Shown: one piece after another, positions 28,379 through 51,725 of the stretch | Layout: every line of letters starts with the position of its first letter | How positions within the stretch are numbered: position 1 is the stretch's first letter | DNA from: Eledone cirrhosa | Lineage: Eukaryota | Direction: 5' to 3' | Length of the DNA stretch: 64,000 nt | Assembly (NCBI GenBank): GCA_964016885.1 | Contig: OZ024744.1 | Location: 48,732,001-48,796,000 of the forward strand | The notes under the pieces: model-generated | What the model saw: the letters and a program-made list of their open reading frames with translations, nothing else | Told to the model about the DNA's origin: nothing | Database searches by the model: none | Made by a program: the position numbers and the translations under genes

Positions 28379-28381
<3 letters not shown>

Positions 28382-29032
28382 AAATAAATTAAATTAAATT
28401 AAATTAAGGGAGTCATGTCCGAGACATACGCCATATCCACCGTAGAATAAGCTCAAAGATTCCAATGAATAGATCCGAGCATTTTATATCAACAAGAAAT
28501 TGATTAACACATATATATATATTTAAAATAAACACATGAAACAATCACAGGGGATAATTTGTAAAGTGTGTAACCACACACACCTAAGTAGGTAACTAAT
28601 TAAAGTTTAACTAGAGTTCAAATATTACATTTAAAAAAATGATTAATCCTCCTTGTATATATTTCATTAAAGAAATATATTTCACCAATAATCCGTAAAG
28701 TCACAGTAGTTAAATCTTGGATCTTCAGCAAGAGGGAAGAAATAACTATCTGTGTTTACACATCAAATGCAAATCTGTGAGTGACCCGTCGCACGTGTTG
28801 CAATTCTAAAACTATTAACAACTTGCTAGCGTCCTCCCATTGGCGTGAATAGGGTGGTCGACAGCTATAAATAGCAGCCCAGTCCATTCAACCGAATTAG
28901 CTCTACAATTAAAGAGCCGTTTATATATCCGAAATAAATTTAATTTAATTAAATTAAGGGAGTCATGTCCGAGACATGCGCCATACCCACCGTTGAATAA
29001 GCTCAAAGATTCCAATGAATAGATCCGAGCAT
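28379..29032 (-). mobile_element. Retrozyme-like non-coding element: 550-bp unit plus ~104-bp terminal redundancy
   Basis: 28379-28482 repeated at 28929-29032 (5 mismatches); HHR on minus strand; (TA)n both sides; related partial copy at 44396-44760. Confidence 0.8.
28648..28735 (-). ncRNA. Type I hammerhead ribozyme (U.U at base of stem II)
   Basis: Minus strand: cctcttg-CTGAAGA-t-ccaa..ttgg-t-GAA-atatatttc[tttaat]gaaatatat-A-caaggagg; 9-bp stem III. Confidence 0.8.
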
Positions 29033-29364
29033 ATATATATATAGTGCAAATTTATACGGGAACAAAACAGAGAGGCAGATATATATGTGTGTGCGTGCGT
29101 GTGTGTGTGTGTGTGCGTGTGTATAAACCCATAGAGCAAATATTTATTAAATAATATATATAAATATATATATTATAAAGCTCGGGGACCTGATGGCTGA
29201 GCGCTTGGCATTTCAACAGCTAGTTCTAGGCTGAGTCTGTTGAAACAGCAAGAGCTCAACCCTATAGCCACACTCTACTACTCTAAGTATAGAGTATTCT
29301 GTTGAGTAATGGTCTAACTAGTTTCAAACTGGTTCCATCTTGATTTATATGTATATATATATAA

Positions 29365-34149: not shown

Positions 34150-37100
34150 CACCTTTAATGTACAGACACATACTCAGAGTAGGCCCATTCACTCGGGCCA
34201 TACTTGCTTCTCACACCCATCTTTCAGCAAAATGCTGGGAAGAGAGCACTTTCCTCTCTACCCTGATTTTCCTTTTCAAATGAAATTTGAAAAAGTTAAT
34301 CAGGGCATCACCGAAGAGGTAAGTGCTCGTCTTCAGCCCTTTCAAACGTGTCCACCATACTATCTCTTTCGCCATGGCCACCAGACAGATAAAAACTGCC
34401 TGCCCTTCCCGGCTAAAGGAAGAGGGCGGGGCAATTCTCACGATGGACTCAGCTGATAGCTGGATCCGTCCTACACGTGACAGCAGGTGTTCGACATAAA
34501 CACACAAGTCAACAATGCTCGGACACTGGACGAGTGCATGCAGGACGGTTTCGTCGCCCTGCGCGCATCTCGGACATGCCCGGCTGACGGCACCCCCTTG
34601 CCTGTAGAGTTTATCCGGAACTGGCAGAGCTCCTCGGTAGCACTGCCAGGTCAGGGATTTCTGGAAGTTGTCCATAGGCCCCGGCCCGAAAGTCCTTCCG
34701 AAGAGATTGGCTAGTTGATTTTCGTCGACGCCTAGAGTTTCTCCAAGTACGTCGGCGCTCTTCCCCCCCCCCCCCCCCCCCCACTAATCCTCTATAGAAC
34801 GCCAAAGTGGAGTTTCCACCGATCACATTGCCCGATTGGTCGAGGGCTGTGAGCGGCTGAAGACATTCCAGTCTCCAAGCGCTCCCTCTCGGTTTTCGCT
34901 TGACCCAGGACTGCAGCTCCATCAAGGAGACGAGCTGGGGAAATACGTGTCTAGCAAACGGCGACCACACCTGATCACCGTCGAGGAAGATGTGGAGATG
35001 TCGTAGCCTGAGCGCGTGTCTGCGCATCATCAGCCACGGCATGCCCAGCCCTCCACGTAGCGTGTATTGACAGCAGATGGACCGCCTGACCATCGGAGCG
35101 CGTCCCTTCCACAAAAAGCGAAAGAGCAAACGCTCCAACGTAGTCAGGCGGGGCTTACGACAGGCGGTAGTAGATGACGGACGCGATGTACGCGTTAGCC
35201 ACCTCCGCTCGACCTTTTAGGGATAGCCTCCTCTCCGCCCATTTCTGGGTGAGAGAAGCCACCCTGCTCGTCACCTCGTCCCAGTTTTTCTCCGTCTGGA
35301 GGTCCGGACCGGACCAGACCCCTGGCAATTTAACCGGTCCGTCCATCCAGCGCCCGACGACGCTGTTGGACGGCATGGACCTGCCTCTCCAGGTTCCGAG
35401 CTGCAGGCCCACTGACTTTTCCTGGTTGATAATTGCTCCTGTCACCGCTTCGTATTCTCTGCCGATCGCCTCGATGTGTTTGCCGTTCGACAACACTACG
35501 GTGACATCGTCCGCATATGCTGACACGGATCTTCCGCATCCTAGTTCGCGCGGGACCCCCCTCAACGTCTCCAGTTTGTGCAGTAATGGCTCGAGAGTCA
35601 ATACGTACAAGAGGGACGAGAGGGGACATCCTTGGCGGACCGAGCGCATGATGTTGAACGGTTCCGAAAGGTGACCGTTCACTCTCACCACAGAGCAGAT
35701 ATCGCTGTGCATGGCAGCGATCCAGCTTCTGAAGACGGGCCCAAAGCCAGCCGCCCTCAGGACTGCCGCTAGGTAACGATGGTCGACCTTATCGAAAGCT
35801 TTCGACTGATCTAAATTGATCAAGGACCCGCCCGTGCCAGGTTCCCTAGCTACCCTCTCTACGATGTATCGCATGAGGTGGAGGTTGTCGTGGATGGATC
35901 TGTCGGGAATGGCGCATGTCTGTGCCTCTCCCACCAGACCACCGACGACAAGCGCCACCCTCTTTGCTAGCACCTTGGCCAAAATCTTGAACTCTGTGTT
36001 TAGCAAAGTTATGGGCCTGAAATTATCTATGTTATCCCCCTTGTTCGGATCCTTTCTCAGCAGCACCACTGCTCTTCGGCTCACAGAGCTGTGAATTCTC
36101 CCGTTCTGTTGCCAGTTGCAGTAGACGTCCGCCAAGAGGCCTCCGAACAAGTCTGGCATCTGTACGTAAAGTTCATAGGGCAGACCATCCAAACCAGGCG
36201 ATTTACCCCTTGTGCAGCCAGTCATTTCCTCCCGTACTTCAGCGGCTGTTATCGGCTTTTCGCAACACTCCGCCTCAGTGGCCGAGAGCCGCGGCAGTCC
36301 GTCGAGGTAGACACTAAAGTCCATCCCTCGATCCGGCCCGCCGCTGCCCTCGTACAGCTGAGCGAAGTGTCGCTGAAAAGCTTCACACATTTTCCCGGGA
36401 TCTAGTAGCATGCGCCCGTCGTGGTCCACCAAAGACCGGATCGTGGCTTTGTTGCCACGACGCGCCTCCGCCACTCGGGCCCATTGAACGGCTTTCGTTC
36501 CCTCATATCTGAGAGCACGCACCCTACCTCTGACAACGCAGCCTTCGTGCTTTGCATTGAATAATTGGTCAAGGGCCAATTTCGCCGCAAGTACGTCGGT
36601 CGCGATGCCTTTGCTAAGCGCCTCGTCTAATTTTCTAACTAGTTCCCCCTCTGCTCTATTTTTCTCTATAGCTAAAGCCTTACTAAACCTAATGGACTCT
36701 ATTCTAATCCCTCTTTTCAGAGCAAACCACCACTTGTTGTTGACGATGCCCCCCCCCCCCCCCCGTCGTCAACACCCACTTAACTAGTTCGCTAATCCGG
36801 TCTCTGTAGGCCTTCGCGCTGGTGGTAAGGACGCGTTTAGCTTCCAGTAGCCGGGTCCTCGTCTATGAAGCTTATCTAAGTCAAGCATACAGATCACGAA
36901 TTTGTGGTCCGTGTAGCTGACTATCTTGAATTGTGGACAGCCTATGCTAGACCTATCTATTTCCCTACAAAATACTCTATCTAGATATGATCTGGATGAC
37001 CCGATACGGTTTGTCCAAGTCCACATTGGCACATTCGGGAAATCCAATCGGTACCTGTCAGATAGTTCAAAACGCCTGAGCAAGTTGGTGAGGCTCTTGC

Positions 37101-37520
37101 ACCCTCCTCCCCTATCCGCTAATCCCACACAGTCCCAGCGTGCATCTAAGATCCCGTTCCAGTCGCCCACTAGCACTAAAGAGCGGGACGTTCCAAGAAA
37201 GGTCTCCAGACGCCGGAAGAAATCAGGCCGCCCTGCTTTTGTCGGGGCATAGACGGCCACTAGCTTGAAGCTTGCCCGTCTCCGCAGGTCACGTCCAGCA
37301 CCACCAACTTACCTTCTGGGTCCAGGAAGATGGCCCGTATGGCGAGATCCAAACCTCTCCGAAAAAGCACAGCAACTCCTATCCCCGATCCAGGACGGCT
37401 GGGAGATGCGTACACATCGTAGCCGCCGAAGATCGGTGCGAAGGCCCGTGCTTCGGAGATTCTGGTCTCGATGATGGCCACTACATCTATGTTTAGTGAC
37501 CTGAGGTCGTTGAGCAGGTG
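34150..37520 (-). pseudogene. Tx1 ORF2 (APE endonuclease, RT, C-terminal CCHC), frameshifted
   Basis: VYAP, GDWN, YLDR, TDHK, GYWKLN; KSPGLDG, NFRPITLLN, LDQSKAFDKV, VRQGCPLS, AYADD; CPRC..ETVLHALVQC. Confidence 0.92.
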
Positions 37521-39666: not shown

Positions 39667-39722
<56 letters not shown>

Positions 39723-39856
39723 TCGTTTCTGAATTTGTTTAGCAAGATTCTCTATCTGAAATCGTGTGTCGAAACCGATATTGTTATACTTTGGGAGGGT
39801 CATGTTGCCAATAAGAAACACACGCACCAGTTGCTTTCACTTCAATTTATTATATA

Positions 39857-41820
39857 CTAACAGTAAAGCCCGGCGTTGCTCGGGGTCGCTCAGTAGCTGT
39901 GTTAAAGTTACAATGTTAAGTTTCTTTTTTGGCTTAAAGTATGTCTGCACGACTGTCTGTCTGCACGCCTAACGAAATTTACAGATACATATATTTTAAA
40001 TAAACTTATATAATTTTTGCTTTTTTTTACGAAATATTTGCTTGTTTTACGTAGTCTTTAAATAGACTTGTTTTCAAGTAAAAATATTGTTTTAAAAGGC
40101 TTTTAAATGGAAATGAAGCAAAACGGAAGCTTAGTGTTCGAACTGATGAATTTTGCAGGTCAAAATTTTGCTGGCTCGACAACTGTTCGTGTATTGTGTT
40201 AATGTCATTTTAAACGCTGAGAAAGCCAGCGTAATTTTTTTAATTTTTGCACGCAGAAAATGTAAACAGAACGTAAGACGCTCAATGTAAACAGAACAAA
40301 GGGAAATAACTCGTCACTTACGCTCAAAAATCGATACATTAGATTCGATTTCGTCACATAGGGTGGGTCAATTTGGAATATTTTTTTCCGATGTCTTCGC
40401 TAGGGCTCAATGTACAAGTATAGCAATTTCGGTGCAATTCCGTCAGAGATTCTAAGAGGAGATGTGTGCCAAAAATCGATAGACAGACAGACAACCACAG
40501 CTTTATATATATAGATGACATAATCAAAAACAAGAACTTATTTGAAAATTTATTTGACCGATGGTTCCGCCGGACCTTCATCTATAAGTGTAGCAATTTC
40601 ACCGAAATTTGAACGTACGGTTTAAGAGGAGATGTGTGCCGAAGGTTTTAGTAGACAGACAGACAACCTCAGTTTTATATATATAGACTAGCAGAGGTAC
40701 CCGGCGTTGCTCGGGTATTAAATAGCAGTTATGTATACCATTTATGTCAATACTTCAGTGCTGCTTCGAAAACTATACTTTTATAAACTCATCGACTTTT
40801 TCCAAAAGGGGGTTCCTGTCCTCAGGGGTCCCCTACTCAATATGTGCCAATTCTGAGAGTTCACATTCATCTGTAGAACAAACGTATCTCATGTGTCAAG
40901 TTTTGTGAAAATCGGTTGCGAACTCCAGAAGTTATGACGTTTTTTTTGCATTGCACTGCAGTGCTTCAGTCGACTCCAAGGAAGTGGTTAAAGGGCGTTA
41001 TCCGCCGGGAGGTCCTATAATCAATATCTGGAAAAATGAAAGTGTCCATGACCATCCGGAGTACATGAGTAACCTATGTCTTAAGTTTGGTGAAAATACT
41101 GTAGAAATGGATAAGGTTTACACACACGCGCGCACGCGCACGTGTGTGTGTGTGTATGTATTTGTGTGTGCGTATGTATAAGTATGTGTATGTTCGTCGG
41201 TGCATACGTATGTACTGGCCTAAATCTTCACTATTTATTTTTACTATGTTAAGGCAAAGTTAAAATCCCGTCGAGGTTAACTTTGCCTTTCATCCTTACG
41301 GGGTCGATAAAATAAAGTACCAGTAATGTACTGTTTAATTGCTGGCCTTGTGCCAAAAGTAGAAACAACTATTTTAATAACCTGTCATTTTCGTTTACAA
41401 TTTTATTTACATCATTCTTAAACTCCGGGGCTGGAAATCATTCGGTTATTTTAAATAGAATATTAGGCTAACGACTCCATTTACACTATAAACTTGGTCT
41501 TCTCTTTGCATGAAATTGTTCTTCTCGGTCCACCGCGTCGTTTATACGTAACATAAATAGATAAGCAAATGACGCCATAAAAGGGAAATAACTCGTCTCT
41601 CATCTCTATTTATACATTTGAACTGAAAAATCAATACATTACAAATTCGCTTTTTACACTTGGCGTGGGTCGATTTGAAAATTTATTTGACCGATGGTTC
41701 CGCCGGACCTTCATCTATAAGTGTAGCAATTTCAGCGAAATTTGAACGTACGGTTTAAGAGGAGATGTGTGCCGAAGGTTTTAGTAGACAGACAGACAAC
41801 CTCAGTTTTATATATATAGA
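39857..41820 (-). mobile_element. Array of three non-autonomous Helitron-like units (39857-40515, partial 40516-40687, 40688-41820)
   Basis: Each starts TCTATATATATAAA on minus; cccg/cggg hairpin before the 3' end; inserted at A|T without TSD; Nin-like SINE nested at ~41250-41375. Confidence 0.85.
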
Positions 41821-41915
41821 TTTATAAATTTATAAATTTATAAATTTACAAATCTACAAATTTATAAATTTCTGGTTGGTTGGTTGGTTCCACAACCAGA
41901 TAGTTGTTTATATAT

Positions 41916-41960
41916 AGTCATAGTCCTTTCGTCTCACACTCTGTGACCTCTTCAGTGACT
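41916..41960 (-). ncRNA. Minimal HHR in inverted Penelope pLTR (one stem II substitution)
   Basis: Minus strand: agtca-CTGAAGA-g-gtcac..gagac-GAAA-ggac-TA-tgact. Confidence 0.7.
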
Positions 41961-42496
41961 GGGGATTCCTTTCTTTGTTTCTGTGCCTTTCCTTTCTTCT
42001 GTCCTACGCCATTTTGTTTCTGTGTGTGTGTTGTGTGCTCAGTTTGCGCATGCGCCACATCCGGGTGTCTGTGTGTGTTTGTGTTCATTTATCTATTTGT
42101 TTATTTATTTATTTATTGTTGGTTGGTTGTTTGTTCTATGTGTGTGTGTTTTCATTTTGTCCTTAATTGTAAGTTGTGATGTTGCTGTTCCACTCATATT
42201 TTCTATTTAATTTTGGTTGTAATTCTTTTATGTTTATTGCCTCTGTAATTTGTCTAAACATTGCATCTTTTCTGTGTGTAGATTCTATTTTTATTTCTAT
42301 GTTCTCTAATTTACCCTTGTGTTCTATCTTAGCATGTTGGTAGAGTACAGATGATTCTTTATTATCTTGAAGGTCTCGCCAGTGTTCATTTATCCGTTCC
42401 CCTATACTACGAGCTGTCTCACCTATGTACACTATATTTTTGTTTCTACATTGTCCTTCAGTACATCTTATGCTATACACTACATTTCTAGTTTTA

Positions 42497-42922
42497 AAAA
42501 CACTTATTAGCAAGACATACCCGTTCCAAAGACCCTCATGTATAGATAAGAAATGTATAACCTGTAAAATAAGCCCCCATATTAACTGTAAAACTAGAAA
42601 TGTAGTGTATAGCATAAGATGTACTGAAGGACAATGTAGAAACAAAAATATAGTGTACATAGGTGAGACAGCTCGTAGTATAGGGGAACGGATAAATGAA
42701 CACTGGCGAGACCTTCAAGATAATAAAGAATCATCTGTACTCTACCAACATGCTAAGATAGAACACAAGGGTAAATTAGAGAACATAGAAATAAAAATAG
42801 AATCTACACACAGAAAAGATGCAATGTTTAGACAAATTACAGAGGCAATAAACATAAAAGAATTACAACCAAAATTAAATAGAAAATATGAGTGGAACAG
42901 CAACATCACAACTTACAATTAA
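42497..42922 (+). pseudogene. Penelope-like C-terminal fragment: Cys-rich linker plus GIY-YIG endonuclease (open frame, 5'-truncated)
   Basis: CIDKKCITC..C, VVYSIRC..C..YIGETARSIGERINEH, SVLYQH...H, TEAINI, PKLN. Confidence 0.9.
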
Positions 42923-43126
42923 GGACAAAATAAAAACACACACACACATAGAACAAACAACCAACCAACAATAAATAAATAAATAAACAAATAGATAAAT
43001 GAACACAAACACACACAGACACCCGGATGTGGCGCATGCGCAAACTGAGCACACAACACACACACAGAAACAAAATGGCGTAGGACAGAAGAAAGGAAAG
43101 GTACAGAAACAAAGAAAGGAATCCCC

Positions 43127-43171
43127 AGTCACTGAAGAGGTCACAGAGTGTGTGACGAAAGGACTATGACT
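43127..43171 (+). ncRNA. Minimal type I HHR in Penelope pLTR
   Basis: agtca-CTGAAGA-g-gtcac[agagtgt]gtgac-GAAA-ggac-TA-tgact; sense to the GIY-YIG ORF. Confidence 0.85.
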
Positions 43172-43325
43172 ATATATAAACAACTATCTGGTTGTGGAAC
43201 CAACCAACCAACCAGAAATTTGTAAATTTGTAAATTTATAAATTTATAAATATATAATAAATTGAAGTGAAAGCAACTGGTGCGTGTGTTTCTTATTGGC
43301 AACATGACCCTCCCAAAGTATAACA

Positions 43326-43437
<112 letters not shown>

Positions 43438-44255: not shown

Positions 44256-44760
<505 letters not shown>

Positions 44761-44790
44761 ATATATATATATATATAAATATATATATAT

Positions 44791-45147
44791 AATATATAAG
44801 ATCAAAAGATGGTTAAAAGAGTTCCATGTATTTTATTATGCACATTTCAAAAACAAATATCATCATGCAATAACATTTGTGTTTTCATCAGATAAAAAAG
44901 GAAGACATGATATGAAGGTTAAAAAACACTTGTGAATAGTGCAGTTTTAAATCAACATATGTTGATGAAAACACAAATGTTATTGCATGAGGATATTTGT
45001 TTTTGAAATGTGCATAATAAAATACATGGAACTCTTTTAACCATCTTTTGATCTTATATATTATGTATACTCCAGTCCTACAAACTGTAGAGTGCTTCTT
45101 ATCCGATATCTGCATTGCTTTATTGTACTACAATAAAACTCACCTCC

Positions 45148-50659: not shown

Positions 50660-51725
50660 CGTAAGGAGTAAAATCCAGCCCAGCCAAAGTCAGTAGTGGC
50701 GTCCTGCAAGGCACTGTGTTGGGCCCACTTCTTTTCATTATCTGCATTAATGACATTACTGACATCATCAAGCACAGCAACATAAGAATCTATGCAGATC
50801 ATTCCAAGCTCCAAAGGGTCATCAATGAGGTGGGGGACCAGACATGCCTTCAGTCAGACCTACTGGCTGTTATCCAATGGGCAGAAAAGAACAATATTCT
50901 GCTGAACGAGGATAAATTTGAATTAATCCTCTTTGGTAATGACGGTGCCCTGAAACTCTCATACTCCCTTCCTTCAGGTGAAACTCTCATGGCATCCAAC
51001 AACATCAGAGACTTGGGAGTAATTATGGACAACAACATAAGCTGGGCAACTCATATAAACAACAAAGTTAACATGGCCTGCAGGATGTGTTCCTTGATTC
51101 TCAGAACCTTCCAGTCGAGAGATATCCACACCATTATCTTTCTTTTCTCTACATTTTCCCGACCCCACCTTGAATACTGTTGTCCACTGTGGTCTCCCCA
51201 CATGAAACAGAGTATCATGAAAGTTGAAGCACCTCAAAGGTCAATCACTAAAAAGATAGATTGCATGTCCGGCCTTGACTATTGGGGTTGACTAGAAAAC
51301 CTCAAACTTTATTCTCTCCAACGTCGCCGTGAGCGCTAGATGTGGAAAATATTCCATCAGCTTTGCCCAAATGATGTTAGCATCACCATTAAACTATACC
51401 CCGTGCTATCCGCCTACAACAAAATCAAACTCGCATCTCATAACAACAATATGGCACAATTATTTCACCTCAATTGGCTCCACTCTCTTTAACATTTCAC
51501 CAAAACACATTAAAATGGAAATAGACTCCATAAAGTTCATGAAGTCTTTGGACAAATTCCTTCAAGAAATCCCGGATAAACCTCCTACACCAGGATATGT
51601 CTCCACAAACAATAACTCTCTACCTGAGTGGGCCATGGTGTCCAAATCCTGATTTGAAAGACTTCGCCAGGTGATGCTATTAAGTTAGACATGGCCTGGG
51701 TCAATACTGACCAAAACCTATCAAA
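50660..51725 (+). pseudogene. CR1-like LINE 3' fragment (RT)
   Basis: LGPLLFIICIND, IYADHSKL, LQSDL, RDLGV, RPHLEYCCPLWSPH. Confidence 0.88.

Follow-up and report, generated by a model that had tools for sequence, protein, structure and literature searches.

A 550-Nucleotide Hammerhead-Bearing Repeat of Eledone cirrhosa, Probably Copied into TA Microsatellites by Neptune-Type Penelope-Like Elements

The DNA under study, hereafter the window, is a stretch of 64,000 nucleotides from the genome of Eledone cirrhosa (assembly GCA_964016885.1, contig OZ024744.1, positions 48,732,001 to 48,796,000 of the forward strand). It contains a non-coding monomer of 550 nt (28379–28928), whose RNA sense is the minus strand, and, next to it, a second, partial unit (28929–29032, minus strand). 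A reading of the sequence alone had described the element as a 1.2-mer with about 104 bp of redundancy and (TA)n flanks, and both descriptions held up. The period is 550 nt, 28379–28482 recurs at 28929–29032, and by BLAST 28372–28489 matches 28922–29040 at 94% identity. An (AT)39 run (28301–28378), likely the target that primed reverse transcription, adjoins the 3′ end of the element, and a short TA run follows 29032 on the far side. The unit has a G+C content of 33%, and no stop-to-stop frame of 150 amino acids overlaps it. We refer to unit position 1 (28379) as start site A and to unit position 107 (28485) as start site B; the 106 nt from A up to B (28379–28484, minus strand) form what we call the tail, and the partial unit stops at about site B, where it joins the TA run.

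A block of 19 nt (28861–28879, minus strand), possibly a promoter element, is common to the 550-nt unit, to a 571-nt subfamily, to a 541-nt unit and to further sister families. Behind the ribozyme motif described below, the sequence weakly suggests a retained intron (28494–28628, minus strand), with a GT donor and, in most copies, an AG acceptor. The 550 and 571 groups retain the letters of both splice sites; the acceptor is mutated in the window copy of the 550-nt unit and is missing at the aligned position in the 541-nt family.

The 550-nt repeat is one of thousands of dispersed, protein-free copies that fall into several subfamilies. We found 3058 candidate places for it in the 3.0-Gb genome, and the 40 that were scored were all 89–100% identical to the unit, bearing out the earlier suggestion of an interspersed family. 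Exact matches to the 19-nt block numbered 2900 genome-wide and 1 in the control, and those to a second motif numbered 3850 and 0, these being counts of places and not of elements. The first 30 listed places of the 19-nt block included additional sister families as well as subfamilies whose identity was as low as about 70%. The subfamilies differ in age (mean identities of 92%, 97% and 98%) and all keep the monomer period, with head-to-tail monomers of 540–571 nt. The 571-nt subfamily is younger than the 550-nt one (mean identity of 97% as against 92%), and a 5′-truncated copy of it lies in the window (44396–44760, minus strand). This copy, which had been taken for a diverged partial copy of the 550-nt unit, is real and does keep the arms of stems II and III with a changed stem II loop, but it belongs to the separate 571-nt subfamily. 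It is 81.5% identical over the BLAST piece, has a U3–A8 core, and ends inside stem I, having lost the 5′ arm of that stem.

The 541-nt unit (20326–20968, plus strand), likewise a 1.2-mer and likewise equipped with a type I hammerhead motif, had been thought to lack similarity to the 550-nt unit. In fact, the two are distant, collinear homologues: their global alignment scored 130, compared with 39 ± 14 for shuffled sequences, and none of 500 shuffles scored as high. The region upstream of the ribozyme was also significant when aligned alone (0 of 1000 shuffles as high), and the region downstream of it alone was not (25 of 1000). Because the 550-, 571- and 541-nt units are homologous, common descent explains their size and layout, in place of the independent second family under a shared size constraint that had been proposed. 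The proposal that both units use the same mobilisation route fared better, the insertion pattern of the 541-nt family being the same; four units in a row were seen in that family.

Further sister families, represented by loci L216, L219, L226, L228, L234 and L224, carry the 19-nt block and hammerhead motifs with G10.1–C11.1 and a stem I of up to 8 bp, and have TA-flanked and inverted arms. The window also contains an imperfect palindrome (44784–45069) with a hammerhead-like match on the minus strand (44891–44833), which may be another small inverted element, since similar sequence flanks L226 and L234. Separately, a 48-nt tandem repeat occupies 15603–16004 and 19515–19635 and has relatives at several places in the window. 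We found no paper on retrozymes in cephalopods in the open-access literature, which misses most subscription papers. The repeat annotation of Octopus vulgaris lists 31 recently active Penelope-like families, and ribozymes do not figure in the main text as available (PMC13282606); repeats of the 550 type may be present in the Octopus vulgaris library under another name.

The minus-strand hammerhead motif with a 9-bp stem III that had been reported for the 550-nt unit was found in a type I layout at 28733–28651. Stem I is formed by 28733–28729 with 28655–28651, the core letters CUGAAGA and GAAA lie at 28728–28722 and 28683–28680, respectively, and the predicted cut falls between 28656 and 28655 (AUA|C). 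Stem II starts with a U·U mismatch, which the sequence-only reading had overlooked, followed by 4 bp and a long loop. This mismatch should lower activity; a U10.1–U11.1 pair is known in natural hammerheads (PMC3088659). Single-sequence analysis argues only weakly for a hammerhead, and the support comes from covariation across copies. Thus, no Rfam hammerhead family matched the entire window or the motif alone, the fold of the single sequence had a z score of −1.97 (9 of 200 shuffles were equally stable), and the predicted minimum-energy fold pairs the core differently. A relaxed motif scan, run with no shuffle control, gave three matches in the window and missed the motif of the 541-nt unit.

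To align the motif we used 115 copies from 105 loci, leaving out 15 overlapping loci. Positions 3 and 8 form a Watson–Crick pair in 111 of the 115 copies (C–G in 55, U–A in 54 and G–C in 2, with G–C variants at L206 and L209) and not in the other 4, and position 7 varies freely. The conservation of the remaining core letters and of the U·U is partly built in, because core letters other than 3, 7 and 8 served as the anchors for extraction. Covariation over genomic copies, suggested earlier as a check on the ribozyme, is present in an alignment of 42 sequences hand-picked from 101 distinct ones: 96.5% of cells are paired, and the covariation score of 0.200 (0.146 for shuffles) exceeded that of all 500 shuffles. 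Double changes occur in 4 of the 19 pairs, a number not above that in shuffles (3.3; 202 of 500 as high). The covarying pairs reflect few lineage events, about two of them for the 3–8 pair, and it is unlikely that chance would have hit this tertiary pair twice. Compensatory changes in the 3–8 pair and in stems I and II, arising in subfamilies that later expanded, point to selection on the fold. A U3–A8 pair is known among Penelope ribozymes (PMC4209133), and G3–C8 partly rescues the ribozyme activity of an anole element (PMC11167929). Against activity stand the U·U at the base of stem II and the outcome in a 2026 preprint, in which only one of nine predicted retrozymes cut in vitro (10.64898/2026.07.22.740005).

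We mapped the ends of insertions in two samples. The first consisted of 52 non-overlapping close loci of the 550 family, which were chosen by similarity and so favour long copies. Of these, 36 are inverted two-arm insertions (as are 21 of 28 and 17 of 26 loci in two further sets), and 40 contain a head-to-tail junction. A TA run adjoined 42 of the 43 ends at site A, and TA also accompanied 25 ends at site B. The second sample was ordered by position and comprised 86 arms at 71 loci, which between them take in almost every one of the first 100 places listed for the motif with 3850 matches. In this sample A or B was the starting point of 76 arms out of 86, with a TA run in 68 cases and without one in 8, and the other 10 start elsewhere. 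The start sites beside TA runs are at unit positions 1 and 107 in the 550 family, and the corresponding sites are at 1 and 126 in the 571-nt subfamily and at 1 and about 84 in the 541-nt family. Starts in the abundant autonomous Neptune-type family of Penelope-like elements from the same genome (n = 46) were similarly concentrated, with 18 at position 1 and 15 at 55–57.

A tail between two internal start sites has been described as unique to Penelope-like elements (PMC11167929), and inverted copies and a preference for (TA)n runs are typical features of the group (PMC8557442). Location in TA runs together with this two-start, often inverted layout makes it likely that a Penelope enzyme copies the 550-nt unit. 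The 104-nt redundancy of the window copy fits a tail of the Penelope type bounded by the two fixed start sites; on this reading the cDNA ran for 1.2 units and ended at about site B. Sites A and B of the 550 family both face AUAUA in the template, with 5–7 nt of complementarity, to which a TA target could anneal. On the other side, the 541-nt family has only 1–3 nt of TA-like template match at its start sites, and the anole element, in contrast to the 550 family, starts at a site not homologous to its target (PMC11167929). Hairpins predicted in the tail were no more stable than those of shuffles.

The layout of the insertions also bears on whether a LINE of the RTE, CR1 or L1-Tx1 type might instead mobilise the element in the manner of a SINE, the ribozyme serving only to trim the transcript. 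LINE open reading frames with endonuclease and reverse transcriptase domains do occur in the window (fragments with one or the other domain lie at 9846–12204, 35155–37308 and 50665–51291), and LINEs have been named as candidate helpers (PMC7229834). The element's two internal start sites, however, its inverted insertions with two arms and its arms that read on across the junction between monomers all match the Penelope-like elements of the same genome, and the joins that we saw, using only Penelope proteins as queries, are to Neptune-type sequence. We consider mobilisation by a LINE very improbable.

A member of a candidate helper family is present in the window itself in the form of an inverted, 5′-truncated Penelope-like element with a GIY-YIG domain (41830–43329). 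We call it and its like Neptune-type from the cysteine linker that precedes the GIY-YIG domain, according to PMC8557442. Further truncated copies of its family lie at 21145–22129 and 39681–39860. This family has 53703 candidate places in the genome and open frames of 863 amino acids and more, its linker reads CxxxxCxxC, it bears its own hammerhead motif, its 3′ ends fall at two sites 54 nt apart, and the nearest named protein is from Octopus vulgaris (65%). Another GIY-YIG family (L125, L126, L128, L132, L145, L147, L149 and L152) has a hammerhead-like motif in its 3′ region, about 400–500 nt past the stop codon, with U3–A8 and a U·U at the base of stem II. That motif is like the one in the 571-nt subfamily, and the remaining sequence is not alignable.

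Could the copies be solo terminal repeats, that is, 5′-truncated ends of an autonomous Penelope-like element that our search missed, with the 550-nt period as a by-product? The unit does follow the order of a Penelope terminal repeat, from a promoter-like block through the ribozyme and a possible intron to an ATG close to the 3′ end and the tail, and the search for a parent covered a sample: out of 10596 candidates with GIY-YIG, 150 received a score and 50 of the 150 were read; the flanks read spanned 1.2–1.5 kb. At least eight GIY-YIG families were seen, and in the Penelope loci read neither BLAST nor a profile detected a homologous terminal repeat, although BLAST is a weak test at such a distance, as it made the 541/550 relation clear in only 2 of 30 loci. 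The top scores of the parent search (z of about 3–4) came from AT-rich alignments only, and one candidate parent element, L129, proved to be a 541-nt piece inserted in a TA run. Three observations speak against solo repeats. First, 33 arms extend as far as the unit's end; 28 of them continue into a following unit, and the remaining 5 break off no more than 15 nt from the junction. Second, the subfamilies of 92%, 97% and 98% mean identity each keep the monomer period. Third, Penelope coding sequence rarely accompanies the repeat. A constant association with a Penelope ORF, regarded in the sequence-only reading as evidence against a retrozyme, was not what we found: such sequence is present at 4 of the 71 position-ordered loci, and an ORF for reverse transcriptase and GIY-YIG is joined to the repeat at 1 of them, so that the repeat does not qualify as an autonomous Penelope-like element. 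Penelope ORF sequence occurred in 15 of 150 other loci (overlaps included), with clear joins at two sites, L087 and L231 with its duplicate L232. At L209 Penelope sequence is nearby and the join is ambiguous, and at L218, L022 and L028 the unit and the Penelope sequence turned out to be separate insertions. We give little credence to the solo-repeat explanation. As the Penelope families sampled yielded no homologous terminal repeat, the helper is one that we infer.

The two clear joins are independent hybrids in which the unit meets Neptune-type coding sequence with no TA spacer, and they involve two different Neptune-type families. In one (L087/L238), a TA-primed 3′ piece of a Neptune-type element, 1.07 kb in length, continues without a break into 571-nt units, the end of which lies at site A and a TA run. 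In the other (L231/L235), a 1.4-unit arm is joined to N-terminal sequence of another Neptune-type family, the Neptune-type part continuing as an inverted piece of 2.7 kb whose far end lacks a TA run. The simplest reading of these structures is that they arose by co-insertion by one enzyme; they could also be nested insertions followed by deletion. The second hybrid is present as an inverted duplication, the two copies (L235 and L236, at about 35.18 and 36.09 Mb of G000:C1) being 98.7% identical across 7.7 kb, and we counted it once.

What RNA would such an enzyme copy? Of the 86 position-ordered arms, 61 extend past the predicted cut site and 28 across the monomer junction; 25 are longer than one unit, and 2 of these are longer than two. 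No excess of cDNA ends was found at the cut site, with 3 observed within 5 nt and 2.4 expected; within 7 nt there were 7 as against 3.3 expected (p = 0.051, the best of four window widths). With most arms reading through the ribozyme site and no build-up of ends there, cut linear RNA would not be the main template. The template is likely to be a circle or an uncut multimer, between which we see about even odds. Predicted folds of circular monomers were more stable than shuffles (z of −4.8, −2.8 and −4.3; 40 shuffles each). Contigs from two sequencing runs of unrecorded kind span the unit, some of them crossing from one monomer to the next; they carry neither copy number nor strand nor RNA ends, and we draw no evidence from them. 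Repeats within an insertion are slightly more alike than copies elsewhere (identity of 0.953 as against 0.941; 15 direct pairs), a difference too small to separate circle from multimer.

The same observations, that is, the absence of an end excess at the cut and the only slightly greater similarity of repeats within an insertion, would fit a hammerhead that is a silent relic in an element that is never circular and spreads as an uncut, non-autonomous Penelope derivative. Insertion of the anole element in vitro is likewise unaffected by ribozyme mutants (PMC11167929). The compensatory changes described above speak against such a relic, and we regard it as unlikely, though it shares its mobilisation route with the explanation that we favour and overlaps it. 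The window copy, a 1.2-mer with a single ribozyme motif, should not release a monomer or a circle by itself. Two complete hammerheads in a row, which the 2026 preprint takes to mark activity (10.64898/2026.07.22.740005), do not occur in the window copy and are present in tandem at other loci, such as L071, L079 and L220.

We class the 550-nt element among the animal retrozymes, a kind already known, as a self-propagating Penelope-like element of the non-autonomous sort. Animal retrozymes were described with Penelope-like elements as candidate helpers (PMC7229834), and the 2026 preprint derives them from Penelope terminal repeats, with monomers of 51–972 bp in vertebrates, three insects and a coral (10.64898/2026.07.22.740005). 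The 550-nt monomer is within that range and resembles these non-LTR retrozymes in being non-coding and low in G+C, in its head-to-tail units with a type I hammerhead, and in its many solo or partial copies and coexistence with Penelope-like elements. It differs in that the circles of coral, mussel and axolotl are of 170–400 nt and have been shown as RNA, whereas the 550-nt unit is longer and is known from DNA alone; in its 9-bp stem III, a short helix III being typical of animal type I motifs (PMC4209133); and in its mostly one to two units, with insertion ends mapped to two sites.

The terminal repeats (pLTRs) of Neptune-type elements share with the 550-nt element a tail between two start sites, an inverted 5′ arm, (TA)n targets and, by eye in two Neptune-type families of this genome, an ATG-containing motif 20–35 nt before the 3′ end. 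Penelope pLTR hammerheads also include U3–A8 variants (PMC4209133), as in the 571-nt subfamily. The Neptune-type elements, unlike the 550-nt unit, bear an ORF, and homology between the unit and the repeats of at least eight families sampled was not detectable. Tails are 30–40 nt in print for Penelope, about 54 nt in the abundant Neptune-type family and 83–125 nt in the retrozyme families. The MRC1 element of Chlamydomonas, one of the Chlamys group, is similarly a non-autonomous Penelope-like element with head-to-tail units and a microsatellite bias (PMC8557442). As a rule, however, non-autonomous Chlamys elements are similar at the 3′ end to some autonomous family, and the Penelope families sampled offered no such partner for the 550-nt element; most Chlamys elements are also described as lacking the canonical hammerhead (PMC8557442), which is conserved in the 550-nt family. 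Like our element, plant LTR retrozymes are non-autonomous and hammerhead-bearing, with RNA in the 600–800 nt class (PMC7229834). The 550-nt element has a type I ribozyme, a single motif and TA flanks, and the plant traits of a type III ribozyme, LTRs, a primer-binding site, a 4-bp target duplication and a Gypsy helper were not seen in it.

The explanation that we consider very probable for the Eledone repeat is that of a retroelement with a hammerhead but no protein of its own, the likely agent that copies it into TA microsatellites being the reverse transcriptase–endonuclease of Neptune-type Penelope-like elements. A tandem source locus would be transcribed from an internal promoter, and a borrowed Neptune-type protein would nick both strands of a (TA)n run. 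Each nick would prime cDNA synthesis inside the RNA, one at site A and the other at site B, aided in the 550 family by the AUAUA complementarity of 5–7 nt. Joining of the two cDNAs would yield inverted or partial-tandem insertions with the 106-nt tail at one end. Either an uncut multimer would serve as the template or a circle, which the ribozyme would produce by cutting and ligating the RNA.

More tentatively, and with rather more doubt than confidence, we raise the possibility that octopods harbour an old, parentless superfamily of circular ribozyme RNAs of about 550 nt that make simultaneous use of several unrelated Neptune proteins. An enzyme acting as a dimer would prime both target strands on two RNAs, and the occasional pairing of one retrozyme RNA with one Neptune RNA would give rise to hybrid insertions. 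If so, the genome would hold direct records of who mobilises animal retrozymes, as well as a natural series of C–G, U–A and G–C catalytic cores over a fixed U·U pair. In any case these natural cores are a ready test of how well the hammerhead tolerates U10.1·U11.1 with each 3–8 pair.

For animal retrozymes, the enzyme and the template RNA are still argued from co-occurrence and from terminal-repeat similarity (PMC7229834; 10.64898/2026.07.22.740005). The Penelope tail signature, the start sites mapped to the base and the two Neptune joins provide unusually direct genomic evidence for the helper. Because Neptune-type families with long open frames are present in the same genome, the question of the helper is open to assay in vitro, and the 550-nt repeat provides a specific case in which to test how animal retrozymes are mobilised.
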